From a virus, in IMG/VR virus record IMGVR_UViG_3300045988_034541, positions 32,511-96,510 of that record: DNA of 64,000 nucleotides; one strand, written 5' to 3'. Below the pieces are notes generated by a model that saw nothing but the letters and a program-made list of their open reading frames with translations, ran no database searches and was not told where the DNA came from. Both the position numbers and the translations under genes were made by a program. Positions 17,991 through 43,109 of the stretch are shown piece by piece. Every line of letters begins with the position of its first letter. Positions within the stretch are counted from its first letter, which is position 1.

Positions 17991-18344
17991 ATGAATCAGA
18001 ATGCAGTTAATTCTTTAAGGAATGCCAAGAGGCATATTCTTATTAGCGATGTTGATAAGTTCAATAGCCATTTATTGTATTACATATTAAATGTTATATA
18101 TGGAACACATGACCATATTAAATTAAATACGATACGTGAAAGACTTGAACGTGAGCTTAAATGGTCATTGGATGAGCATATTCCTGATAAGGATGTAATT
18201 AGAGAATGGCTTGACAATGATTACCCTCTTATATGCATAACAGAGTTATCGTTTGACAGTTGTATTAAACTTGCCAACGATTTCCCAGATTATGAAATTG
18301 TAGTTTATAGTTGGATGAAACATGAAGGGAACTTACCATTTTAA
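17991..18344 (+). CDS. hypothetical protein
   Basis: 117-aa ORF. Confidence 0.45.
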   Translation: MNQNAVNSLRNAKRHILISDVDKFNSHLLYYILNVIYGTHDHIKLNTIRERLERELKWSLDEHIPDKDVIREWLDNDYPLICITELSFDSCIKLANDFPDYEIVVYSWMKHEGNLPF

Positions 18345-18480
18345 ATGGAATAAAAATAACTCCTAGGCTATTAAGTCTGTAATGGGTACGCTACTCAATG
18401 TAGCACAGGAAGATACTGATAGCTTTTTTGTTCAGGTTTGAGAGACCTCCTGGCATGAGAGGATAATCATGCCGTTCTAT

Positions 18481-19030
18481 GGGCCTAGATTTGGTTTTGA
18501 CAGGCGATTACAAGTTAGTAAGACGTGTAGAGTTCGTACCAACTCTTTAATAATGATACAGCAATTTAAGTGGAAACACTGAAGTAAGAATGGCAGCCTA
18601 AGCTGCTGGCTTATCTATTAATTTAGCTCTAAGTCGGGTTAATTGGAGAGACCTAGAAACAGAAGAGGTGTGGGAAGAAGCGTATAGAGCAGCCCACTTA
18701 ACTTGAAAGCCAAAGGTTAGTAAAGCTGAAATCTCCACTACCTATCTATGGGTTACAAATAGAAACGTTCTCCAACGTAAATGGAGTGGTGGAGCGACCG
18801 TTCGGTCAAGCCCAGGTTTGGAAGCGTCAGCTTCTGAACCTTTAAGTTTGGTAGTTTGTGAACAACTAAGTCGTAGCCCTACGAGGGAGACGTAATTGGT
18901 GAATTAACACTCGGCTTCTTAGTAAAACTACCTACATGCTGAACTCAACAGCTGATGTAATAAAATAGAGACACACGTAATCTTATTAATGAGGGTTGTT
19001 TGGACGGCGGTTCGACTCCGCCTAGGTCCA
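18481..19030 (+). ncRNA. ssrA: tmRNA (SsrA-like)
   Basis: 5' end GGGCCUAGAUUUGGUUUUGACAGG matches the tmRNA 5' consensus (GGGGCUGAUUCUGGAUUCGACGGG). 3' end GGACGGCGGUUCGACUCCGCCUAGGUCCAC matches the tRNA-like 3' domain. The acceptor pairs 18481-18487 with 19023-19029. Candidate tag frame ...NTEVRMAA ends in TAA (18603-18605), inside the hairpin GCAGCcuaaGCUGC. No ORFs in this 550-nt span. Confidence 0.75.
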
Positions 19031-19058
19031 CTATTATTAACGTTTAAATATCAATTTT

Positions 19059-19412
19059 ATGGGATTATTTATTATTGCAGTGATTGTTTTACTTATTTGT
19101 GTATGTCTTTCGCGAGTAGGGTCTAAAGACCTAAGAGAAGTTGCAGTGGCAGTTGAGATTGTATTCTCAATAGCAACAGTTGGGGCAGCGATTTCATTAC
19201 CATTCGCTATTACAAGGAATATTCAAATTATTGGCAAGCACGCAGTGCTCAAAGAAACATTGGAGGCTACTGATAGGAAGAATTACTATCTTATATCTAG
19301 TGATGTCTTAAGGCTTAATTATACCATCATGAATCATAGGAACTTTGTAGACAACTTCTGGATTGGGATATGGTATGATAAGGACGTAGCTAAATTGGAA
19401 CTATTAAAATGA
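19059..19412 (+). CDS. membrane protein
   Basis: 117 aa with a hydrophobic N-terminal half. Confidence 0.45.
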   Translation: MGLFIIAVIVLLICVCLSRVGSKDLREVAVAVEIVFSIATVGAAISLPFAITRNIQIIGKHAVLKETLEATDRKNYYLISSDVLRLNYTIMNHRNFVDNFWIGIWYDKDVAKLELLK

Positions 19413-20906: not shown

Positions 20907-21286
20907 ATCCACTATTGACGAATGGTGGTAGCAAAACTTGGTCTGAAGAACCAGTAGACATATTCCGGAGTATGTCTATGACTTAAAGGCTATATCAAAG
21001 AGTTGAAACCTGTATCTATTCGAACAGTAGGAGTTCACCTGATTAAGCATCAGAAAACAGTAGTGCAAATCTACTATAGATATTGTGTAAGAGAGAATCT
21101 ACACGGTCTGCATTATATAATCAGCATGCAGATAGGTCACCAAGCAAACCTCTTTCCTGCCTGGTCAAGTGTGCATTACGGTCTGTAAGTGGCGAGCGGG
21201 TTAACGTATGTCCGATTGCCGTAATGCCGCTTGTTTATTGTTTAGAATAAAGAAAGACTCTCATAACAATAAATTTAAACAAAGAG

Positions 21287-22981
21287 ATGGAAATGAAAGG
21301 AGCACAAAGGCCAAGGAGGCCTTACCCTAATGCCGCACGTCAAAGGCGGGATGAGAATAAACCTAAGTTTGTGGATAATAATCAGTTATTCATAGACCAG
21401 TTTGTTAATCTTAAGAAATGTCTTCAGCCACGTACCTACGTGCAAGTGGCTAAAGATATGTATCCTTTATGGAAAGCTAATCCATTACTATGTACTAAGT
21501 TTACTGCATATACGAGAATGATAACTCGTAAATGTAGAATAATTACCCCGGAAGGAGTTATACAACTTGATACACAGCAAGGAGAAGGTTTGAAGAATGA
21601 AGGTATAATGAGAATGTTGTGGTTGGCAATCTATCACAAACCCACATTCCATGCCAACATTGCTTATTTTGCAGCAGCTGGATGCTGGAAAGATTTCATT
21701 ACTATGATGGCTTTAGATGTTCAACTCCATGGCTTTAAGCACAGATTGGATTGGGACTTCTTCAAGAAAGTCATATTCGCAGGTCTTGCCAACGGTCAGA
21801 CATGTGATTTAGTAAAGAAGTATCTTCCTCGTGTTCGTTCCAGTGTTGCATGTAAGACAGATGAGGCAAAAGCACGTAACACAGTAGCCAAATTCTTGGC
21901 GGAAGGCCTTTATGGTAAACCTAAGGATGAAGGAGACTATTCAACCTATCGTAAATATAGGAAGATGAAGAATAGTGGGAAAGCAGCCCAATGGCAGCAG
22001 TTAATCAGTCAAAAGAAATTCTTGGAAATCGATTTTGACACTGTTACTGGAAAGGCGCTGGCACAGCTAGTAGGCTCTAAATTCCTCAAACATCAAGGTC
22101 TTAAAGAGAAGTATCAGAACTGGTTGAAGAACCGTAAGAAGCCCTCTAATAGCGGATTTCTACATACTCTGTTCAAACCATACGGATTGGATAAAATTGC
22201 CGAAGAGATTCCAGAATTTATGGAAACTTCTATTAATGCAAGTTTCAATGTATTTGTTGATAATGCTAAACGCAATAGAGTAGCTCCGTTGTTGGTAGTA
22301 AGAGATATAAGTCATTCTGCTAATGGTGAGATAGAGAATAGCGAAACATCTGCTTACAGTTTGGGTAAAGCATATGCTTTATATCATTCTGAATTACTTC
22401 CTACAATATTCAAGAACTCCTATGCCGTGTTAGAGGATAACATGGTTCTACGTAAGTTCAAAGGTCAGAATGTCATTGAGAAATGGAAATCTGACAAAGA
22501 AGAAGCATTATGCCAGAATCCTTCTATTATTAATATAGCAGAAATGCTGTGTAAAATGAAAGAAGATTATGGTGTGGATGAAGGAGAGTTCCCTAGAGGC
22601 TGTGTGGTAATTACTAACCATACATATTTTACCAAGTTGAACAACCAAGCATTCGTGGAATTTAAGCAAAGACTGCTTAAAGCAAATTTCAGTAAGGAAT
22701 TTGTAAGAGCATTCAAAGTTATCATTTGGAGAGTTCCTTTAGCATATAAGGGAAGACCTAATGTGGCTTTGGTTCCAGGAGTGTCAAATTGCTTCTTAGT
22801 AAATGGACTTAATAATTCAACATCCTCATTTATTACTGGAGAGAAGAGGTTCCAGGTGCCTAAAACCACTAGAGACATCTTTAAGCATGCTATGAATCAA
22901 GAGTTGCTTAATATGATGATTCTAGAGAAGGATGTTGTCAAGAAGAATGCAAGCGTGCAGAAGAAGCCTGTGAAGGTCTAA
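21287..22981 (+). CDS. hypothetical protein (564 aa)
   Basis: Long ORF; no motif recognised. Confidence 0.55.
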   Translation: MEMKGAQRPRRPYPNAARQRRDENKPKFVDNNQLFIDQFVNLKKCLQPRTYVQVAKDMYPLWKANPLLCTKFTAYTRMITRKCRIITPEGVIQLDTQQGEGLKNEGIMRMLWLAIYHKPTFHANIAYFAAAGCWKDFITMMALDVQLHGFKHRLDWDFFKKVIFAGLANGQTCDLVKKYLPRVRSSVACKTDEAKARNTVAKFLAEGLYGKPKDEGDYSTYRKYRKMKNSGKAAQWQQLISQKKFLEIDFDTVTGKALAQLVGSKFLKHQGLKEKYQNWLKNRKKPSNSGFLHTLFKPYGLDKIAEEIPEFMETSINASFNVFVDNAKRNRVAPLLVVRDISHSANGEIENSETSAYSLGKAYALYHSELLPTIFKNSYAVLEDNMVLRKFKGQNVIEKWKSDKEEALCQNPSIINIAEMLCKMKEDYGVDEGEFPRGCVVITNHTYFTKLNNQAFVEFKQRLLKANFSKEFVRAFKVIIWRVPLAYKGRPNVALVPGVSNCFLVNGLNNSTSSFITGEKRFQVPKTTRDIFKHAMNQELLNMMILEKDVVKKNASVQKKPVKV

Positions 22982-25299: not shown

Positions 25300-25371
25300 G
25301 CCCCATTACTTCAGTGGTAGAAGAGCAAATTCTAAACTTGTATGGCGTTGGTTCGAGTCCAACATGGGGCA
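25300..25371 (+). tRNA. suppressor tRNA, anticodon CTA (reads UAG)
   Basis: Canonical cloverleaf: acceptor gccccat/atggggc, D-stem cttc/gaag, anticodon arm gcaaa-ttCTAaa-cttgt, T-arm gttgg-ttcgagt-ccaac. Confidence 0.75.
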
Positions 25372-25373
25372 CT

Positions 25374-31030: not shown

Positions 31031-32992
31031 ATGGAAATGACATCATTAATTATCGTTGGTGTAGTTGTACTAGTTGCAATCATCACTATCATTGGGATTC
31101 TATCCCGCTACCGTAAATGTAAATCTGACGAATTGTTGGTAGTTTATGGTAAAACAGGCTCTCACAAAGAGAAAGTTAGCGAACGCGACGCTAAAGGTAA
31201 TCTGGTTGACAGAGAAGTTGAAATTAAAACTGCCAAAGTTTATCATGGTGGTGCAGCTTTTGTATGGCCGATTATACAGGGTTATGAAGTAATGTCAATG
31301 CAGCCGATTCAATTGAATCTTGTATTGAAGAATGCTTTGTCAGCTCAAAATATTCGTGTAACTATCCCTACCACTGTAACTGTTGCTATTAGCCAAGAAC
31401 CGCTGATTATGCAGAATGCTGCTAATCGCTTACTAGGTGCTGATGATGACGTTAAAGAAAGTTTGATTTCAGATATTGTTTATGGTCAGATGAGGCTTGT
31501 TATTGCTTCGATGACTATTGAAGAGCTTAACTCTGACAGAGACAAGTTCCTAGCTCAAGCTAGAGACAATATCAATACAGAATTGAACAAACTTGGTCTT
31601 TATCTGATGAATATCAATATCAGTGACATTCAAGATGCTGCTCAATATATTGATAATCTTGGTAAGAAAGAAGAGACTAAAGCAAGAGCGCAATCACAAG
31701 CTGATATCGCAGAAGAAGAGAAGAAAGGAGCAATCCAGATAGCTCAAACTACGAGAGAGAAGGAGATTGCAATTGCAGCAGCTACTAAGGAGCAAGAAAC
31801 TATAGTGGCTGAAACTAACAGGGAGAAAGAAGTTGCTATTGCTAAGACCACTAAAGAGAAAGAAACTCAATTGGCCGAGCAGCATAAGGAGCAGCAAATT
31901 GCTGTTGCAGAGCAAAGAAAGGAACGTGAAATTGGTGTGGCTACAGCCCAAACTGAAGAAGCATCCAAAGTTGCCGAGCAAGAAGCATTAAGAGCTGCTA
32001 AGATTGCAGAGCAGCAAGCTTATGCAACTGCTAAAGAAGCAGAATTTACTGCCAAAGCTGAAGCCGCTAAGGCAGAAGCAGAAGCAGAGAAGGAAGTTCG
32101 TATGGCAGTAGCAGCACAAAACCAAGAAGCTGAAACTGTTAAAGCACAACAGGAAAAGGAAGCTAAAACTGCACAGTATGAATCAGAAGCCCGTCAAAAG
32201 GCAGCTGAAGCAGAGAAAGCAGCAGGAGTAGCTGAACAGAAAGCTACTATTGAAGTTTCCAAAGCTAAGGGAGAAGCAGAGAAAGCTAAAGCTGAAGCAG
32301 AAAGAGTAGCTGGTACTTCTAAAGTTGAAGCTCAAATGGCAGTTGCTAAAACAGAGCAAGAACGTCAGGTGGAAGTTAACGAAGCTAAAGCTAAAGCTGA
32401 AGAAGCTAAGCTTAAAGCTGAAGTAATTATACCTGCCGAGAAAGCCAAAGAGAAAGCTAAAATTGAAGCAGAAGCTGTTAAGAGTGTAGCCATTCTTGAA
32501 GCAGAAGCGGAAGCAGCTAAAATCTTGAAAGCAGCAGAAGCTAAAGCAAATGCTACTAAGATGCAACTGGAAGCAGAAGCTGAAGGTACCAAGAAGAAAC
32601 TTCTTGCTGAAGCTGAAGGTAAGAAAGCATCTTTAATGGCAGAAGCTGAACAGAAACAGGCAATGGAAATGGCTCCGGCTCTTGCAGTTGAACATATGAT
32701 TAAATCAGGTATGCATCCTGAAGCAATCGTTCAATATGCAATGACCGACAGGTGGAAAGAAGTTGCTGAAGCCAACGCTAAGGTGTTTGAACATATCCAG
32801 CTTGGTAATGTTACTGTGTATGGTGACTCCAATACTGCTGGGCAGTTCATGGCTAATATGGCTAAGAATCTTGCTCCTAGCTTGGAAATTGCTCGCAATT
32901 TGCCCATTGCAGATTCGCTTAAGCAAATAATCACTGGCAAGAAGCCGGAAGAATCACCAGCTAAAGGTGATGAATTTCCTCCTGTAAAGTAA
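31031..32992 (+). CDS. flotillin-like SPFH (band-7) domain protein
   Basis: N-terminal TM helix, then a band-7/SPFH core, then a roughly 300-aa Ala/Glu/Lys-rich EA-repeat coiled coil, then a conserved C-terminus; this is the flotillin (FloT/YuaG-like) architecture. Confidence 0.75.
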   Translation: MEMTSLIIVGVVVLVAIITIIGILSRYRKCKSDELLVVYGKTGSHKEKVSERDAKGNLVDREVEIKTAKVYHGGAAFVWPIIQGYEVMSMQPIQLNLVLKNALSAQNIRVTIPTTVTVAISQEPLIMQNAANRLLGADDDVKESLISDIVYGQMRLVIASMTIEELNSDRDKFLAQARDNINTELNKLGLYLMNINISDIQDAAQYIDNLGKKEETKARAQSQADIAEEEKKGAIQIAQTTREKEIAIAAATKEQETIVAETNREKEVAIAKTTKEKETQLAEQHKEQQIAVAEQRKEREIGVATAQTEEASKVAEQEALRAAKIAEQQAYATAKEAEFTAKAEAAKAEAEAEKEVRMAVAAQNQEAETVKAQQEKEAKTAQYESEARQKAAEAEKAAGVAEQKATIEVSKAKGEAEKAKAEAERVAGTSKVEAQMAVAKTEQERQVEVNEAKAKAEEAKLKAEVIIPAEKAKEKAKIEAEAVKSVAILEAEAEAAKILKAAEAKANATKMQLEAEAEGTKKKLLAEAEGKKASLMAEAEQKQAMEMAPALAVEHMIKSGMHPEAIVQYAMTDRWKEVAEANAKVFEHIQLGNVTVYGDSNTAGQFMANMAKNLAPSLEIARNLPIADSLKQIITGKKPEESPAKGDEFPPVK

Positions 32993-33079: not shown

Positions 33080-33167
33080 GGAGAGTTGGGTGAGTGGCTT
33101 AAACCAGTCCCCTGCTAAGGGACCGAACCTCAAAAGGGTTCCGCTGGTTCGAATCCAGCACTCTCCG
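33080..33167 (+). tRNA. tRNA-Ser(GCT), type II
   Basis: Acceptor ggagagt/actctcc, anticodon arm gtccc-ctGCTaa-gggac, long variable arm, T-arm gctgg-ttcgaat-ccagc. Confidence 0.85.
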
Positions 33168-33219
33168 CGCTGGCTAATAAGAGTTTGCGAAAATCATTAT
33201 TAACCTAATTATTAGAATT

Positions 33220-37578: not shown

Positions 37579-38646
37579 ATGATAAATATAGTTTTAGGTA
37601 GTTTCTTCGGCGATTGCGGTAAGGGACAGACAGTTCACAACTTATGTAACAAGTACATAGGTAAGCGAGAGTCTGTGTTAGTAGTCAGGTTTAGTGGTGG
37701 ACATCAAGTAGGACATACTGTAAAGCATGGAGACATGATGCACACCTTTAGTAACTTTGGCAGCGGAACCTTACTTGGAGTGCCGACGTACTGGTCCGAA
37801 TACTGTACTGTAGACCCAATTACCTCTATGTTGGAGGGTGCAGACTTAGCTAAAATGGGAGTTCATCCCATTGTTCAGTATCACCCTCACTGCCAAGTTG
37901 TAATTCCCTTCGATGTCTATTCCCAAGTTAATAACGAAGAGAACTTACGACATGGTACTGTAGGTACAGGGTTTAAAGCTTGTTTGGACCGAGTTAAGGC
38001 AGGATACAGCTTAACAGTTGTAGATTGTATGAATCCTTACATACTGCGTGAGAAACTAAATGCCATAGTGGATAACTATTACAACATGTCTAGTAAATAT
38101 CCTTCGATAGACCTAGACAACTGGTGTAGGTTAGCACATGCTTATTTCTTACATACAGGTACGGTTAATGAAGATTGCTTGTTGAATTATGATAACCTAG
38201 TGTTTGAAGGTTCACAGGGAATATTGCTTGACCAAAGATTCGGCATAATGCCTTATTGTACTCCGTCTAATACAACTTCACAAAACGCTTACGAGCTGTT
38301 GCGGAAAGTAGGTATACGTAAAGAAATCCAAACTTGTTATGTAACTCGTCCTTATATAACAAGGCATGGTAACGGCCCGTTTCCTTCTGGAATGTCTGTT
38401 AGGGATGTCGATGACCCTAATAATAAGTTCAACGATTTCCAGAAGACGCTTAGGGCTATTGATTTCGACAAAGACCTATTCGCACACAGTGTACGCATTA
38501 ACCGTTCATTTAAGGTTCCTTATAGGAATGAACGAACGGAGAAATTGTACGTATCACATTGGGATGAAGCATCTGACGCAGAGCGAGAAATGCTAGCAAA
38601 TTTATGGATGTCGATACAGCCCATGATATTCGATAAGTTAGTTTAG
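37579..38646 (+). CDS. adenylosuccinate synthetase family protein, short form (PurZ-like candidate)
   Basis: Motifs GDCGKGQ (compare PurA GDEGKGK), GGHQVGHTV (GGHNAGHT), GTVGTGF (IGTTGRGIGP), FEGSQGILLD...TPSNTT (FEGAQGTLLD...TSSNTT) and GNGPFP. At 355 aa it is shorter than the cellular PurA (about 430 aa). Confidence 0.7.
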   Translation: MINIVLGSFFGDCGKGQTVHNLCNKYIGKRESVLVVRFSGGHQVGHTVKHGDMMHTFSNFGSGTLLGVPTYWSEYCTVDPITSMLEGADLAKMGVHPIVQYHPHCQVVIPFDVYSQVNNEENLRHGTVGTGFKACLDRVKAGYSLTVVDCMNPYILREKLNAIVDNYYNMSSKYPSIDLDNWCRLAHAYFLHTGTVNEDCLLNYDNLVFEGSQGILLDQRFGIMPYCTPSNTTSQNAYELLRKVGIRKEIQTCYVTRPYITRHGNGPFPSGMSVRDVDDPNNKFNDFQKTLRAIDFDKDLFAHSVRINRSFKVPYRNERTEKLYVSHWDEASDAEREMLANLWMSIQPMIFDKLV

Positions 38647-39198: not shown

Positions 39199-40656
39199 AT
39201 GGCAAAGAACATTATTCCGCAAGGAACTACAGCTGCTATTAAGCAGAGAGTTAACAAGTACGAGGAAACTCAGAAACAGAGAATGATTGAAGTGCTCCAA
39301 AGCAATGTGAAGTATGCTGATGCTCTGGGATTCATCGAAGGTGAAATCAAACAGTCCAAGAAAATGGCAAGTTTCAAATACTCGCTGCTTTGTTGGAAAC
39401 CAGACGGTGTATATCAGTTGAACAGAGCAATCAATGAAATCTTCGGTTCTGCCGTTAGTAAGGAGGATAACAGTCCTTCTGGAAACAGCAACATTGATAC
39501 CGTAGACGTTGTTCTGGCAGACGGTTCTCGTACCAAAGTTCCGTTTGGTAAAATTAGCCTTGAAGAATTGGGAGAAGATTCTGAAATCAACATCAACTAT
39601 GACAATGACCGTCATTTGCTCCTTATTAAAGGACAATGCCAGTTCAAATATCAGTCATTGATTGATGATATTGTTGACAGAACTAAAGAGCTGTTGGCGT
39701 CAGAATCTATCTATAAGAATCAGGCACTGGAAATCAGCAATCTGTCTGAACCTACTATCATGACACTTGCCGGCATTGAGAAACAATTCATGGTTCTTTC
39801 TAAGAAGACTGAATTTGAATTGCAACCGCTACGCTCAAGAATCTTGTATCCAGAGAAATGTCTGGCTAAAGGTATTCCATTGAAGTATGGTTGTTTGCTG
39901 GAAGGTAAATATGGTACAGGTAAGACCTTGCTGGCATTTAAGCTGGCTAAAGATGCTGTAACAAACGGTTGGTCGTTCGTGTATTTGAAGAATCCTTCTC
40001 TTCTTGCAGAAACTCTGCGCATGTGTAAAGTTGTTGACCGTTCGGGCCATGGTGTTGTCGTATTTGTTGAAGATATTGACCAAGTAACTAGAGGTAACAG
40101 AGATGCTGCTATGCAAGACATCCTGAATACTCTGGACGGTGGTGATACCAAAGACATGAACGTAATCACCTTGTTCACTACTAATCACATTGAATTGATT
40201 GAACCTACCTTCTTAAGAGGTAAGAGAATCGGCTCTGTGATTACCATGGACTGTCTGGACGCTGAAACTGCGGAGAAATTCATCCGTTCTACCTTCACCG
40301 CTGAAGAAGGATATACAATCGACGATGATTTGAGTGAAGTATGTAACTACATTCAAGAAGCTGAAATTGCTCCGGCATTTATGGCTGAAATCGTTGAATC
40401 AACCAAATCCAAACTTATCTTTACAGAAGAAACCCATGTAACATCGTTCCATATCAAAGCTAGCGTTGAATCTTATCAACGTCAACTTGGACTTGCATCC
40501 AAGAAAGCTGTTGTGGAAACTCCGGCTGAAAGATTGGTAAATGCTCTCAAACTCGTTCTGGGTACAGAGAAGCTTGAAGCAATCACTCAGATGTGTGAGT
40601 ATCAGTGGGAACTCGACCGTAAGGACTATTCTACGGAGAAGAAAGACAACAAATAA
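39199..40656 (+). CDS. AAA+ ATPase
   Basis: Walker A GKYGTGKT, Walker B VVFVEDID, sensor-1 TTN and arginine-finger region; the N-terminal roughly 200 aa are unknown. Confidence 0.7.
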   Translation: MAKNIIPQGTTAAIKQRVNKYEETQKQRMIEVLQSNVKYADALGFIEGEIKQSKKMASFKYSLLCWKPDGVYQLNRAINEIFGSAVSKEDNSPSGNSNIDTVDVVLADGSRTKVPFGKISLEELGEDSEININYDNDRHLLLIKGQCQFKYQSLIDDIVDRTKELLASESIYKNQALEISNLSEPTIMTLAGIEKQFMVLSKKTEFELQPLRSRILYPEKCLAKGIPLKYGCLLEGKYGTGKTLLAFKLAKDAVTNGWSFVYLKNPSLLAETLRMCKVVDRSGHGVVVFVEDIDQVTRGNRDAAMQDILNTLDGGDTKDMNVITLFTTNHIELIEPTFLRGKRIGSVITMDCLDAETAEKFIRSTFTAEEGYTIDDDLSEVCNYIQEAEIAPAFMAEIVESTKSKLIFTEETHVTSFHIKASVESYQRQLGLASKKAVVETPAERLVNALKLVLGTEKLEAITQMCEYQWELDRKDYSTEKKDNK

Positions 40657-42713: not shown

Positions 42714-43109
42714 ATGTTTGTAAAATTTGTAAAAGATGATAAGACAATAGAGGAAGTATCAATCTCATCAGAGATGATTCCATTTCCTACTGATATAGTA
42801 GTGTTAGAAGCTGGTAAATTCACCGTAGAATCTAGAGAGTATGATATACTTGATGGAACTTGTACAGTTATATTAGACCAACAAATTACCTGGGCAGAAC
42901 ATCCTCAAGAGTATAGTGATGCAATGCTTGCATGCAGGAAGCGTTGGAATAATACAATTGATTTGTCATGTGAAGACTTCTTTAAGATGAAACAGTTTGT
43001 ATCGACTGGTTCCAAACTGCAAGCAATTAAGCATGTAAAAGAATCTGCTAAATGTGGTTTAAAAGAAGCTAAGGATTTTGTTGACACTTATTGCGATTAC
43101 GTATTATGA
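42714..43109 (+). CDS. hypothetical protein
   Basis: 131-aa ORF. Confidence 0.45.
   Translation: MFVKFVKDDKTIEEVSISSEMIPFPTDIVVLEAGKFTVESREYDILDGTCTVILDQQITWAEHPQEYSDAMLACRKRWNNTIDLSCEDFFKMKQFVSTGSKLQAIKHVKESAKCGLKEAKDFVDTYCDYVL

Follow-up and report, generated by a model that had tools for sequence, protein, structure and literature searches.

The 64,000-nucleotide (nt) stretch analysed here (the window; positions 32,511 to 96,510 of IMG/VR virus record IMGVR_UViG_3300045988_034541) holds, between the open reading frames (ORFs) ending at 18344 and starting at 19059, a segment (18345-19058) in which no ORF exceeds 46 amino acids. Within it, at 18481-19030 on the + strand, lies what is very probably a functional one-piece transfer-messenger RNA (tmRNA; ssrA-like) gene of an uncultured human-gut phage. 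A sequence-only reading had proposed a phage tmRNA in this ORF-free segment, had remarked that it was longer than typical tmRNAs, and had named ARAGORN and a covariance model as checks. The strings that it quoted were found in the window where it had placed them, and the segment is indeed free of longer ORFs. The Rfam tmRNA model RF00023 scored 83.4 bits at 18481-19033 (+) (E 7.1e-31; model positions 1-374 of 374), far over its gathering score of 47 bits, and the gene of about 550 nt is indeed long beside a consensus of 374 positions. The defining features of a tmRNA that can be tested from sequence are present, mostly with compensatory changes, in agreement with the identity proposed. They are listed below from the 5' end, with base pairs abbreviated as bp.

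18481-19030 (+): tmRNA (ssrA-like) gene, from G1 to discriminator A19030, as given by RF00023 and 58 distinct full-length copies
18481-18487 (+): acceptor stem, 5' strand GGGCCUA; seven of seven pairs in all 58 copies, and present in the minimum-free-energy (MFE) fold
18488-18500 (+): D-loop analogue GAUUUGGUUUUGA, with the conserved GG..UUUGA motif; aligns to the D-loop region of RF00023
18501-18528 (+): helix 2, 5' strand, in segments 18501-18506, 18515-18523 and 18524-18528
18529-18559 (+): pseudoknot 1; stem 1 18529-18534/18541-18546, short putative stem 2 18536-18538 (GUA)/18557-18559 (UAC)
18567-18571 (+): UAAGU, positions -5 to -1 of the resume codon
18572-18601 (+): tag frame GGA AAC ACU GAA GUA AGA AUG GCA GCC UAA, encoding GNTEVRMAA and a stop
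18591-18608 (+): helix 5, a 7-bp stem (18591-18597/18602-18608) with a 4-nt CUAA loop that contains the stop codon; 100% paired
18973-19002 (+): helix 2, 3' strand; 18997-19002, 18981-18989 and 18973-18977 pair, in this order, with the three 5' segments
19006-19022 (+): T arm, GGCGG, loop UUCGACU, CCGCC; 100% paired, compensatory changes at three of five pairs
19023-19029 (+): acceptor stem, 3' strand UAGGUCC, paired with 18481-18487

An alignment to a gut-virome fragment supplied two conserved blocks, which a scan of IMG/VR located at 72 and 56 loci, on 98 viral contigs in all; these contigs measure 90-270 kb, many of them 179-192 kb, and derive largely from human-gut samples. By BLAST and end-finding we obtained 58 distinct full-length copies, the window copy included, with lengths of 517-604 nt (median 556). 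Eleven of twelve relatives tested with RF00023 scored 56-96 bits at exactly the independently extracted coordinates. We derived a structure from the window together with the comparative pattern and tested it on the alignment of the 58 sequences (5866 cells). Standard pairs filled 89.9% of the cells, against 37-46% when the partners were slid by 1-3 columns, and the covariation score was 0.205 compared with about 0.045; none of 500 shuffles reached the observed values. Changes on both sides were seen at thirty-two pairs. The unconstrained MFE fold of the 550-nt RNA had a z-score of -2.6, with none of 100 shuffles equally stable, and it includes the acceptor, T arm, helix 2, helix 5, a helix at 18850-18857/18925-18932 and other helices. 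No DNA similarity to any tmRNA was detectable in 50,697 deposited phage records, in which the only close matches were two unannotated gut-virome fragments. A megablast search with 24 kb of the window gave nothing but a tRNA match, and the window as such has no close relative in these records.

The acceptor stem, which MAFFT had aligned wrongly, was checked directly in each copy. The sequence-only reading had paired 18481-18487 with 19023-19029, one of the pairs being G.U, and this holds: the stem has 7 bp, carries the G.U at the third position and forms in the MFE fold. Four compensatory variants of the 5' strand occur among the 58 copies (GGGCCUA, GGGCCUG, GGGCUUG and GGGCCAU), and both G18483.U19027, which is the G3.U70 alanine identity pair, and discriminator A19030 are invariant in all of them. 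The D-loop analogue has G13, G14, T17, T18, G19 and A20 invariant throughout the alignment, and the T loop is continuous, with no interruption. Helix 2 amounts to 20 bp in its three segments (97.6%, 99.8% and 100% of cells paired), with changes on both sides at ten pairs. One sub-lineage (L003, L032, L093 and L095) has a divergent D-loop and helix 2a (GGGCCAUACAUGGAAUUGAUUCAUGAUGAC...), to which a change on the 3' side corresponds (GAAGACC...).

The resume codon of RF00023 aligns to GGA 18572, and the tag frame that opens there is the one proposed earlier, ending ...N-T-E-V-R-M-A-A-stop. The hairpin GCAGC-cuaa-GCUGC, in which the stop had been placed, is likewise real (18593-18597/18602-18606); the TAA itself, however, lies at 18599-18601 and not at 18603-18605. 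UA occupies positions -5/-4 of the resume codon in 56 of the 58 copies, in the same register in clades with a Gly start and in those with an Ala start. We take this register to be that of U85/A86 in E. coli tmRNA, which help set the frame. Pseudoknot 1, in reduced form, lies 12 nt upstream of the resume codon; its 6-bp stem 1 is 100% paired and invariant, and its stem 2 switches from GUA/UAC to GCA/UGC between lineages.

Thirteen tag variants of 9 or 10 codons are found in the 58 copies, all of them ending [R/K]M[A/V]A. Besides the window tag they include AEIAPVRMAA, ATYSEVRMAA, AERSD[V/Y]RMAA, AEIDYNRMAA, GNTTYRMAA, GETEGFRMAA, ANTSVRMAA, GNTEVKMAA and GNTVYRMVA. Neither a frameshift nor an internal stop occurs in any of the 13 variants across the 58 copies, and the only indel is one of 3 nt. 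Synonymous changes fall in the resume codon (GGA/GGC, GCA/GCU) and in the last codon (GCC/GCG/GCU), and the frame closes with UAA in 55 copies but with UGA in the other three. A compensatory change from C-G to U-A preserves the helix 5 stem in two copies, where the tag becomes ...RMVA. The Arg codon (once Lys) before ...MAA is conserved even though it lies outside helix 5, which suggests selection on the tag peptide itself.

The extra length of the gene, about 180 nt, falls within the body between the tag and the last pseudoknot; in the RF00023 alignment an excess of 33 nt follows the tag, and a stretch of 35 in the consensus corresponds to 191 nt in the gene. Conserved blocks alternate with variable modules in the 364 nt (18609-18972) that reach from the end of helix 5 to the last pseudoknot. 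Each module is a hairpin or a small branched element; even relatives that are otherwise close have different modules or lack them, at five sites or more (among them the tip of 18609-18634, 18670-18697, 18745-18763, 18814-18841 and 18858-18924). The elements of the body are as follows.

18609-18634 (+): extra hairpin directly after helix 5; base GCUUA/UAAGU conserved, 88.6% paired
18636-18654 (+): pseudoknot 2, stem 1, GGGUU/GACCU; 100% paired
18732-18737 (+): pseudoknot 2, stem 2, 3' strand UCUCCA, paired with loop 18644-18649 (UGGAGA)
18670-18697 (+): variable module, hairpin GUGGG...CCCAC; 70% paired on the poor alignment of a swapped module
18708-18718 (+): small hairpin AGCC-AAA-GGUU; 90% paired, one pair changed from C-G to U-A in 16 sequences
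18745-18763 (+): variable module, hairpin UCUAU...AUAGA; swapped in more than half of the copies, with an element of about 60 nt elsewhere
18765-18786 (+): H-type pseudoknot; ACGU 18765-18768/ACGU 18775-18778, loop CUCCA 18770-18774/UGGAG 18782-18786
18796-18807 (+): hairpin GACC-GUUC-GGUC; 88% paired, changes on both sides at three pairs
18814-18841 (+): hairpin of 12 bp, loop GUCA; inserted in only 9 of 58 copies, 100% paired there, one compensatory pair
18850-18932 (+): 8-bp helix GGUAGUUU (18850-18857)/AAACUACC (18925-18932); 98.3% paired, in the MFE fold
18938-18970 (+): last pseudoknot (PK4-like); GCUG 18938-18941/CAGC 18949-18952, loop CUC 18944-18946/GAG 18968-18970

Downstream of the tag, covariation supports three or more H-type pseudoknots (18636-18654/18732-18737, 18765-18786 and 18938-18970). 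The long-range helix of the first, 18644-18649/18732-18737, is 85% paired with changes on both sides at five of six pairs, and none of 2000 loop-target permutations matched it; its covariants are GGAAGG/CCUUCC, GGAGAA/UUCUCC, AGGAGA/UCUCCU and UGGAGA/UCUCCA. It was adopted in place of a nested helix, 18733-18738/18789-18794, which was only 69.7% paired. The stems of the second are 96% and 95.5% paired, with C-G replaced by U-A in 15 sequences. Both stems of the last pseudoknot are 100% paired and show changes on both sides at three pairs. The 8-bp helix at 18850-18857/18925-18932 has G-C, G-U and A-U types at one pair and encloses a variable module of 67 nt (18858-18924), and a candidate 4-bp helix at 18657-18660/18846-18849 never varies across copies. 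As to the modules, other self-complementary sequences substitute at the tip of the 18609-18634 hairpin, other lineages hold a branched element of about 80 nt at the 18670-18697 site, and the 18814-18841 insertion is preceded by a partial repeat of AGUUUGG. We tentatively pair loop GGGUU 18750-18754 with 18809-18813, from a comparison by eye of GGGUU/AGCCC with GGGCU/AGCCC.

Since hairpin modules alternate with conserved blocks, the gene is, on this comparative pattern, long because its pseudoknot body is enlarged to about twice the usual size and mosaic, and not because it is interrupted. An interrupted or split tmRNA, from which an intron or an inserted element would be removed to leave a mature RNA of ordinary size, might account for discrete modules being present or absent between close relatives, as with 18814-18841 (9 of 58 copies) and the element of about 80 nt that replaces 18670-18697. 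It would also fit the finding that known intron-bearing tmRNA genes begin at 545 bp (PMC11915505). However, a permissive rescan of 18300-19200 (E up to 10) returned neither a group I or other intron nor any other credible Rfam family, and the T loop, the sole known site of tmRNA introns, is intact. The modules, moreover, are short hairpins with compensatory changes that stack into the body at five sites or more, and not one insert, which makes an interrupted gene very unlikely. A two-piece (permuted) tmRNA was also considered and rejected: tmRNA_permuted (RF04321 and relatives) scored 23 and 12.5 bits against a threshold of 47, and the gene order is standard.

Two further alternatives concern function and origin. 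The tRNA-like domain could act as a non-tagging decoy that soaks up host SmpB or EF-Tu and so blocks host trans-translation; no SmpB is encoded in the window, and a phage RNA consisting of the tRNA-like domain (TLD) only that inhibits tmRNA is on record (PMC4131195, PMC11915505). Yet a decoy would not need an mRNA-like part, and all 58 copies retain the resume context, an open frame of 9-10 codons and the stop in helix 5, and vary only in frame. This conservation contradicts a decoy, to which we accord hardly any probability. The segment might instead be a bacterial ssrA gene or the remnant of an attachment site, whether as bacterial or prophage-border DNA or as an inert piece of host ssrA left by imprecise excision, as tmRNA genes are common sites of prophage integration and ssrA fragments occur in prophages (PMC9004378). 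A family-specific 23-mer was indeed matched in a metagenome-assembled genome (MAG) labelled Clostridium sp. That match, a single 29.8-kb contig (L101), was nevertheless the only one among 185,579 bacterial and archaeal genomes, one for each species, and given the near-absence of Shine-Dalgarno sites from the window we regard it as probably a mis-binned phage contig. The gene is also complete at both ends, lies inside a phage tRNA array and is under structural constraint across about 98 viral contigs, and the two gut-virome fragments were its only close DNA matches in the 50,697 phage records. A bacterial remnant is accordingly the least credible of the alternatives, and a functional one-piece tmRNA is the reading that we retain.

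Several observations nevertheless weigh against it. Expression, processing, charging and use of the RNA for tagging are predicted from sequence, and what the phage would gain from it is guesswork. SmpB (PF01668) was not found by a Pfam scan among the 86 ORFs of the 64-kb window. The constancy of the last three tag codons, which overlap the 5' strand of helix 5, may be structural and not at the level of the peptide. Stem 2 of pseudoknot 1 has only 2-3 bp and weak statistics, with 50 of 2000 permutations as good. One of the twelve relatives scanned, L003, the sole representative of its sub-lineage among them, fell short of the RF00023 gathering threshold, although the rest of its RNA shares about 88% identity with the window copy. 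Finally, ARAGORN in its default configuration fails to call either the window copy or 55 of 58 relatives, and thus did not bear out the sequence-only reading where the covariance model did. On the window it reported 28 tRNA genes (two of them overlapping calls) and no tmRNA, and the three relatives that it did call were all given a wrong tag. Only at -ps80 was the window copy reported, as a 'permuted' tmRNA with the correct tag GNTEVRMAA. We ascribe the silence of the default run to a limit of the program and not of the RNA.

If the gene works as a tmRNA, knowledge of tmRNA biology leads us to expect that host RNase P and 3' processing enzymes would release the RNA from a phage transcript. CCA would be added post-transcriptionally, because only its first C is encoded after A19030 (the next bases are C-U-A) and CCA is encoded in just 3 of the 58 copies. 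Many bacterial tmRNA and tRNA genes rely on CCA addition as well, so that the lack of an encoded CCA speaks neither for nor against a tmRNA. Host alanyl-tRNA synthetase would charge the RNA with alanine through G3.U70, and with SmpB and EF-Tu it would move into the vacant A site of ribosomes that have stalled on mRNAs which are broken or lack a stop codon. The SmpB partner would most likely be that of the host, which is the default in view of the lack of SmpB among the window ORFs. A tblastn search of the window with an E. coli SmpB sequence also gave no match, and no SmpB was found in about 1 Mb of the relatives' loci, which are partial genomes. Translation would then switch to GGA 18572, so that the nascent chain gains A-GNTEVRMAA; termination at the UAA would release the product and recycle the ribosome, and the tagged protein would pass to host proteases.

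As conjecture, the benefit to the phage could be extra ribosome-rescue capacity during infection, as host mRNAs are destroyed; relief from RNase-type defences; or the clearing of ribosomes that read through host UAG stops once an amber-suppressor tRNA is made. A bolder proposal, which we think improbable though worth stating, is that of a private phage ribosome-rescue RNA functionally diverged from the host's. Its ...RMAA end, in place of host ...ALAA, would be a distinct degron that routes products to or away from particular host or phage proteases, and its doubled, recombining pseudoknot body would offer phage or host factors a platform on which to dock. In that case the RNA would be tied to the way in which the phage manipulates termination, through its amber-suppressor tRNA, or to the evasion of host defences based on RNases, which give rise to non-stop ribosomes.

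The gut-phage RNA resembles one-piece bacterial tmRNA in its G3.U70 acceptor, T arm, helix 2, probable pseudoknot 1 and UA at -5/-4, and in a tag of 9-10 codons that ends in AA, a stop in the helix 5 loop and downstream pseudoknots. It differs in being phage-encoded, in its length (517-604 nt against a consensus of 374 positions), in a body that is roughly doubled and modular, and in the minimal second stem of its pseudoknot 1. The native Bacteroides SsrA tag is GETNYALAA (bioRxiv 10.1101/2025.03.18.644028). GNTEVRMAA likewise starts with Gly, has the same length and ends in AA; among the family tags, GNTTYRMAA is identical to the Bacteroides tag at five of nine positions and GETEGFRMAA shares its first three residues. 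By contrast, the gut-phage tag ends in RMAA and not ALAA. This conserved replacement of Ala-Leu by Arg-Met in a Bacteroides-like tag makes it simple to test whether a phage redirects protein tagging.

Phage tmRNAs have been described in the mycobacteriophage Bxz1 group, Bacillus phage G, huge phages and, as a two-piece form, marine phages (Melnitz) (PMC4131195, PMC7162821, PMC9004378). They are rare, one survey finding them in 2.3% of deposited phage genomes. With these the gut family has in common a complete gene in a large tRNA-rich genome and a presumed role in supporting or redirecting ribosome rescue (PMC4131195, PMC7162821, PMC9004378); it differs in being one-piece and much longer, and in its setting, the human gut with a probable Bacteroidales host. 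In the tmRNA database, 500 bp forms part of a cut-off that excludes all non-intron forms, and the smallest intron form has 545 bp (PMC11915505). Unlike intron-containing tmRNAs, which carry a group I intron in the T loop, the RNA described here has an uninterrupted T loop, no intron signature and its extra length in the body. Mycobacteriophage DS6A encodes a TLD-only RNA without a tag frame, for which a block of host trans-translation has been proposed (PMC11915505, PMC4131195); both RNAs are phage-borne and have a tRNA-like domain, whereas a conserved tag frame is found only in the gut family.

Phage tmRNAs as such are thus already known, and the gut family is distinguished by the following: 1) it is a large family from a type of human-gut phage that is very common; 2) its body is long and modular; and 3) it has been overlooked by the standard detection tool. 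It is among the longest intron-less tmRNA genes, and its 517-604 nt lie at or beyond the size that separates intron-bearing from ordinary tmRNA genes. The family illustrates how far a pseudoknot body can grow and swap modules. Nearly all surveys of phage tmRNAs rest on ARAGORN (PMC9004378, PMC7162821, PMC12291355). As a family on about 98 viral contigs is almost invisible to this program, current gut-virome counts of phage tmRNAs are underestimates, and covariance-model search should join the annotation pipelines for large Bacteroidales phages.

The tmRNA gene lies inside an array of tRNA genes, 27-28 in number, which are scattered over 17840-52847, each of them on the + strand, and interleaved with small ORFs. 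Two overlapping tRNA predictions on opposite strands are found at 33080-33183. In many relatives no more than a few bases separate the tmRNA from a tRNA gene downstream of it. The array includes an amber-suppressor tRNA (anticodon CTA) at 25300-25372 (+), to which ARAGORN gives the label Pyl. TAG terminates 13 of 77 window ORFs, and there is no sign of stop-codon recoding in this early-gene region; with TAG in use as a stop, any recoding would concern genes outside the window. Window genes match PHROGs and encode DnaB-like and other helicases and nucleotide-metabolism proteins, and a Pfam search of the ten ORFs flanking the tmRNA gave zero matches.

A GGAG, GAGG or AGGA motif precedes only 2 of 36 ATG ORFs, which is below the background of 10.6%. 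Such scarcity of Shine-Dalgarno sites is what one expects of Bacteroidota and their phages, but not of Firmicutes. Together with the Bacteroides-like tag, it points to Bacteroidales as the probable host, of a phage that is probably about 180 kb in size. By traits alone, the phage may be a Zeta crAss-like one. Its traits are as tabulated for that group (PMC12386605): contigs of 179-192 kb, about 27 tRNAs, a CTA suppressor, a GC content of 37.6%, as measured in the window, and a forward block of tRNA and replication genes. A tmRNA is mentioned neither in that paper and its supplements nor in the main crAss-like survey; the paper and supplements on Lera (PV725988), a Zeta crAss-like phage, mention neither tmRNA nor SmpB. 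Should the family belong to this group, its tmRNA would be a translational accessory so far unreported in human gut phages of one of the most common kinds.

Two putative signals lie immediately upstream of the gene:

18438-18467 (+): promoter-like site TTGAGA-18 nt-GATAAT, sigma-70-like, from a consensus scan; putative
18452-18473 (+): hairpin GGCAUGA (18452-18458)/UCAUGCC (18467-18473), overlapping the promoter-like site; its loop contains the -10-like GATAAT

Only 7 nt separate the end of the hairpin from the tmRNA 5' end, and relatives have a hairpin of other sequence there. The 136-nt spacer before the tmRNA also contains a conserved non-coding stretch, 18371-18420, with a small hairpin GCUAC...GUAGC (GCCAC...GUGGC in relatives). 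These upstream elements may serve as a promoter, as a terminator of the upstream gene or as a processing signal. An upstream motif, CCTGGC-N8-ATAAT, was considered as a recurring phage promoter but not supported, with 2 matches against 1.07 expected.

Other structured RNAs occur nearby. A RAGATH-34 RNA was found at 20909-21016 (+), about 1.9 kb downstream of the tmRNA, with 119 bits (threshold 60.7); it stands directly upstream of an ORF of 564 amino acids (21287-22981) that matches PHROG 850, 'RNA-binding protein'. The two RNAs are syntenic, since RAGATH-34 recurs 1.5-2 kb from the tmRNA in several relatives (L016:3252-3359, L072:10331-10435, L077:6732-6831 and L091:1423-1520). A pistol ribozyme (54.5 bits) and a RAGATH-1 hammerhead (69 bits) lie within a few kb of relatives' tmRNAs (L011:1907-1980, L021:444-516).

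Among the protein-coding genes of the window, the ORF at 42714-43106 (+) contains a segment resembling the C-terminal domain of ribosomal protein L7/L12 (PF00542, 6e-6; weak tblastn match at 43008-43088), which makes it another translation-related gene near the tRNA array. An AAA-family ATPase is encoded at 39199-40656 (+) (PF00004, 1e-13), and an SPFH/Band 7 protein (1e-24) is also present. Relatives of both work with membrane proteases in bacteria; a link of these two proteins to the degradation of tagged proteins would be pure speculation. At 37579-38646 (+) lies an adenylosuccinate-synthetase homologue (PHROG 1211, PurZ-type, 5e-45; PF00709, 2e-33), and this PurZ-type match hints that 2-aminoadenine may replace adenine in the phage DNA.

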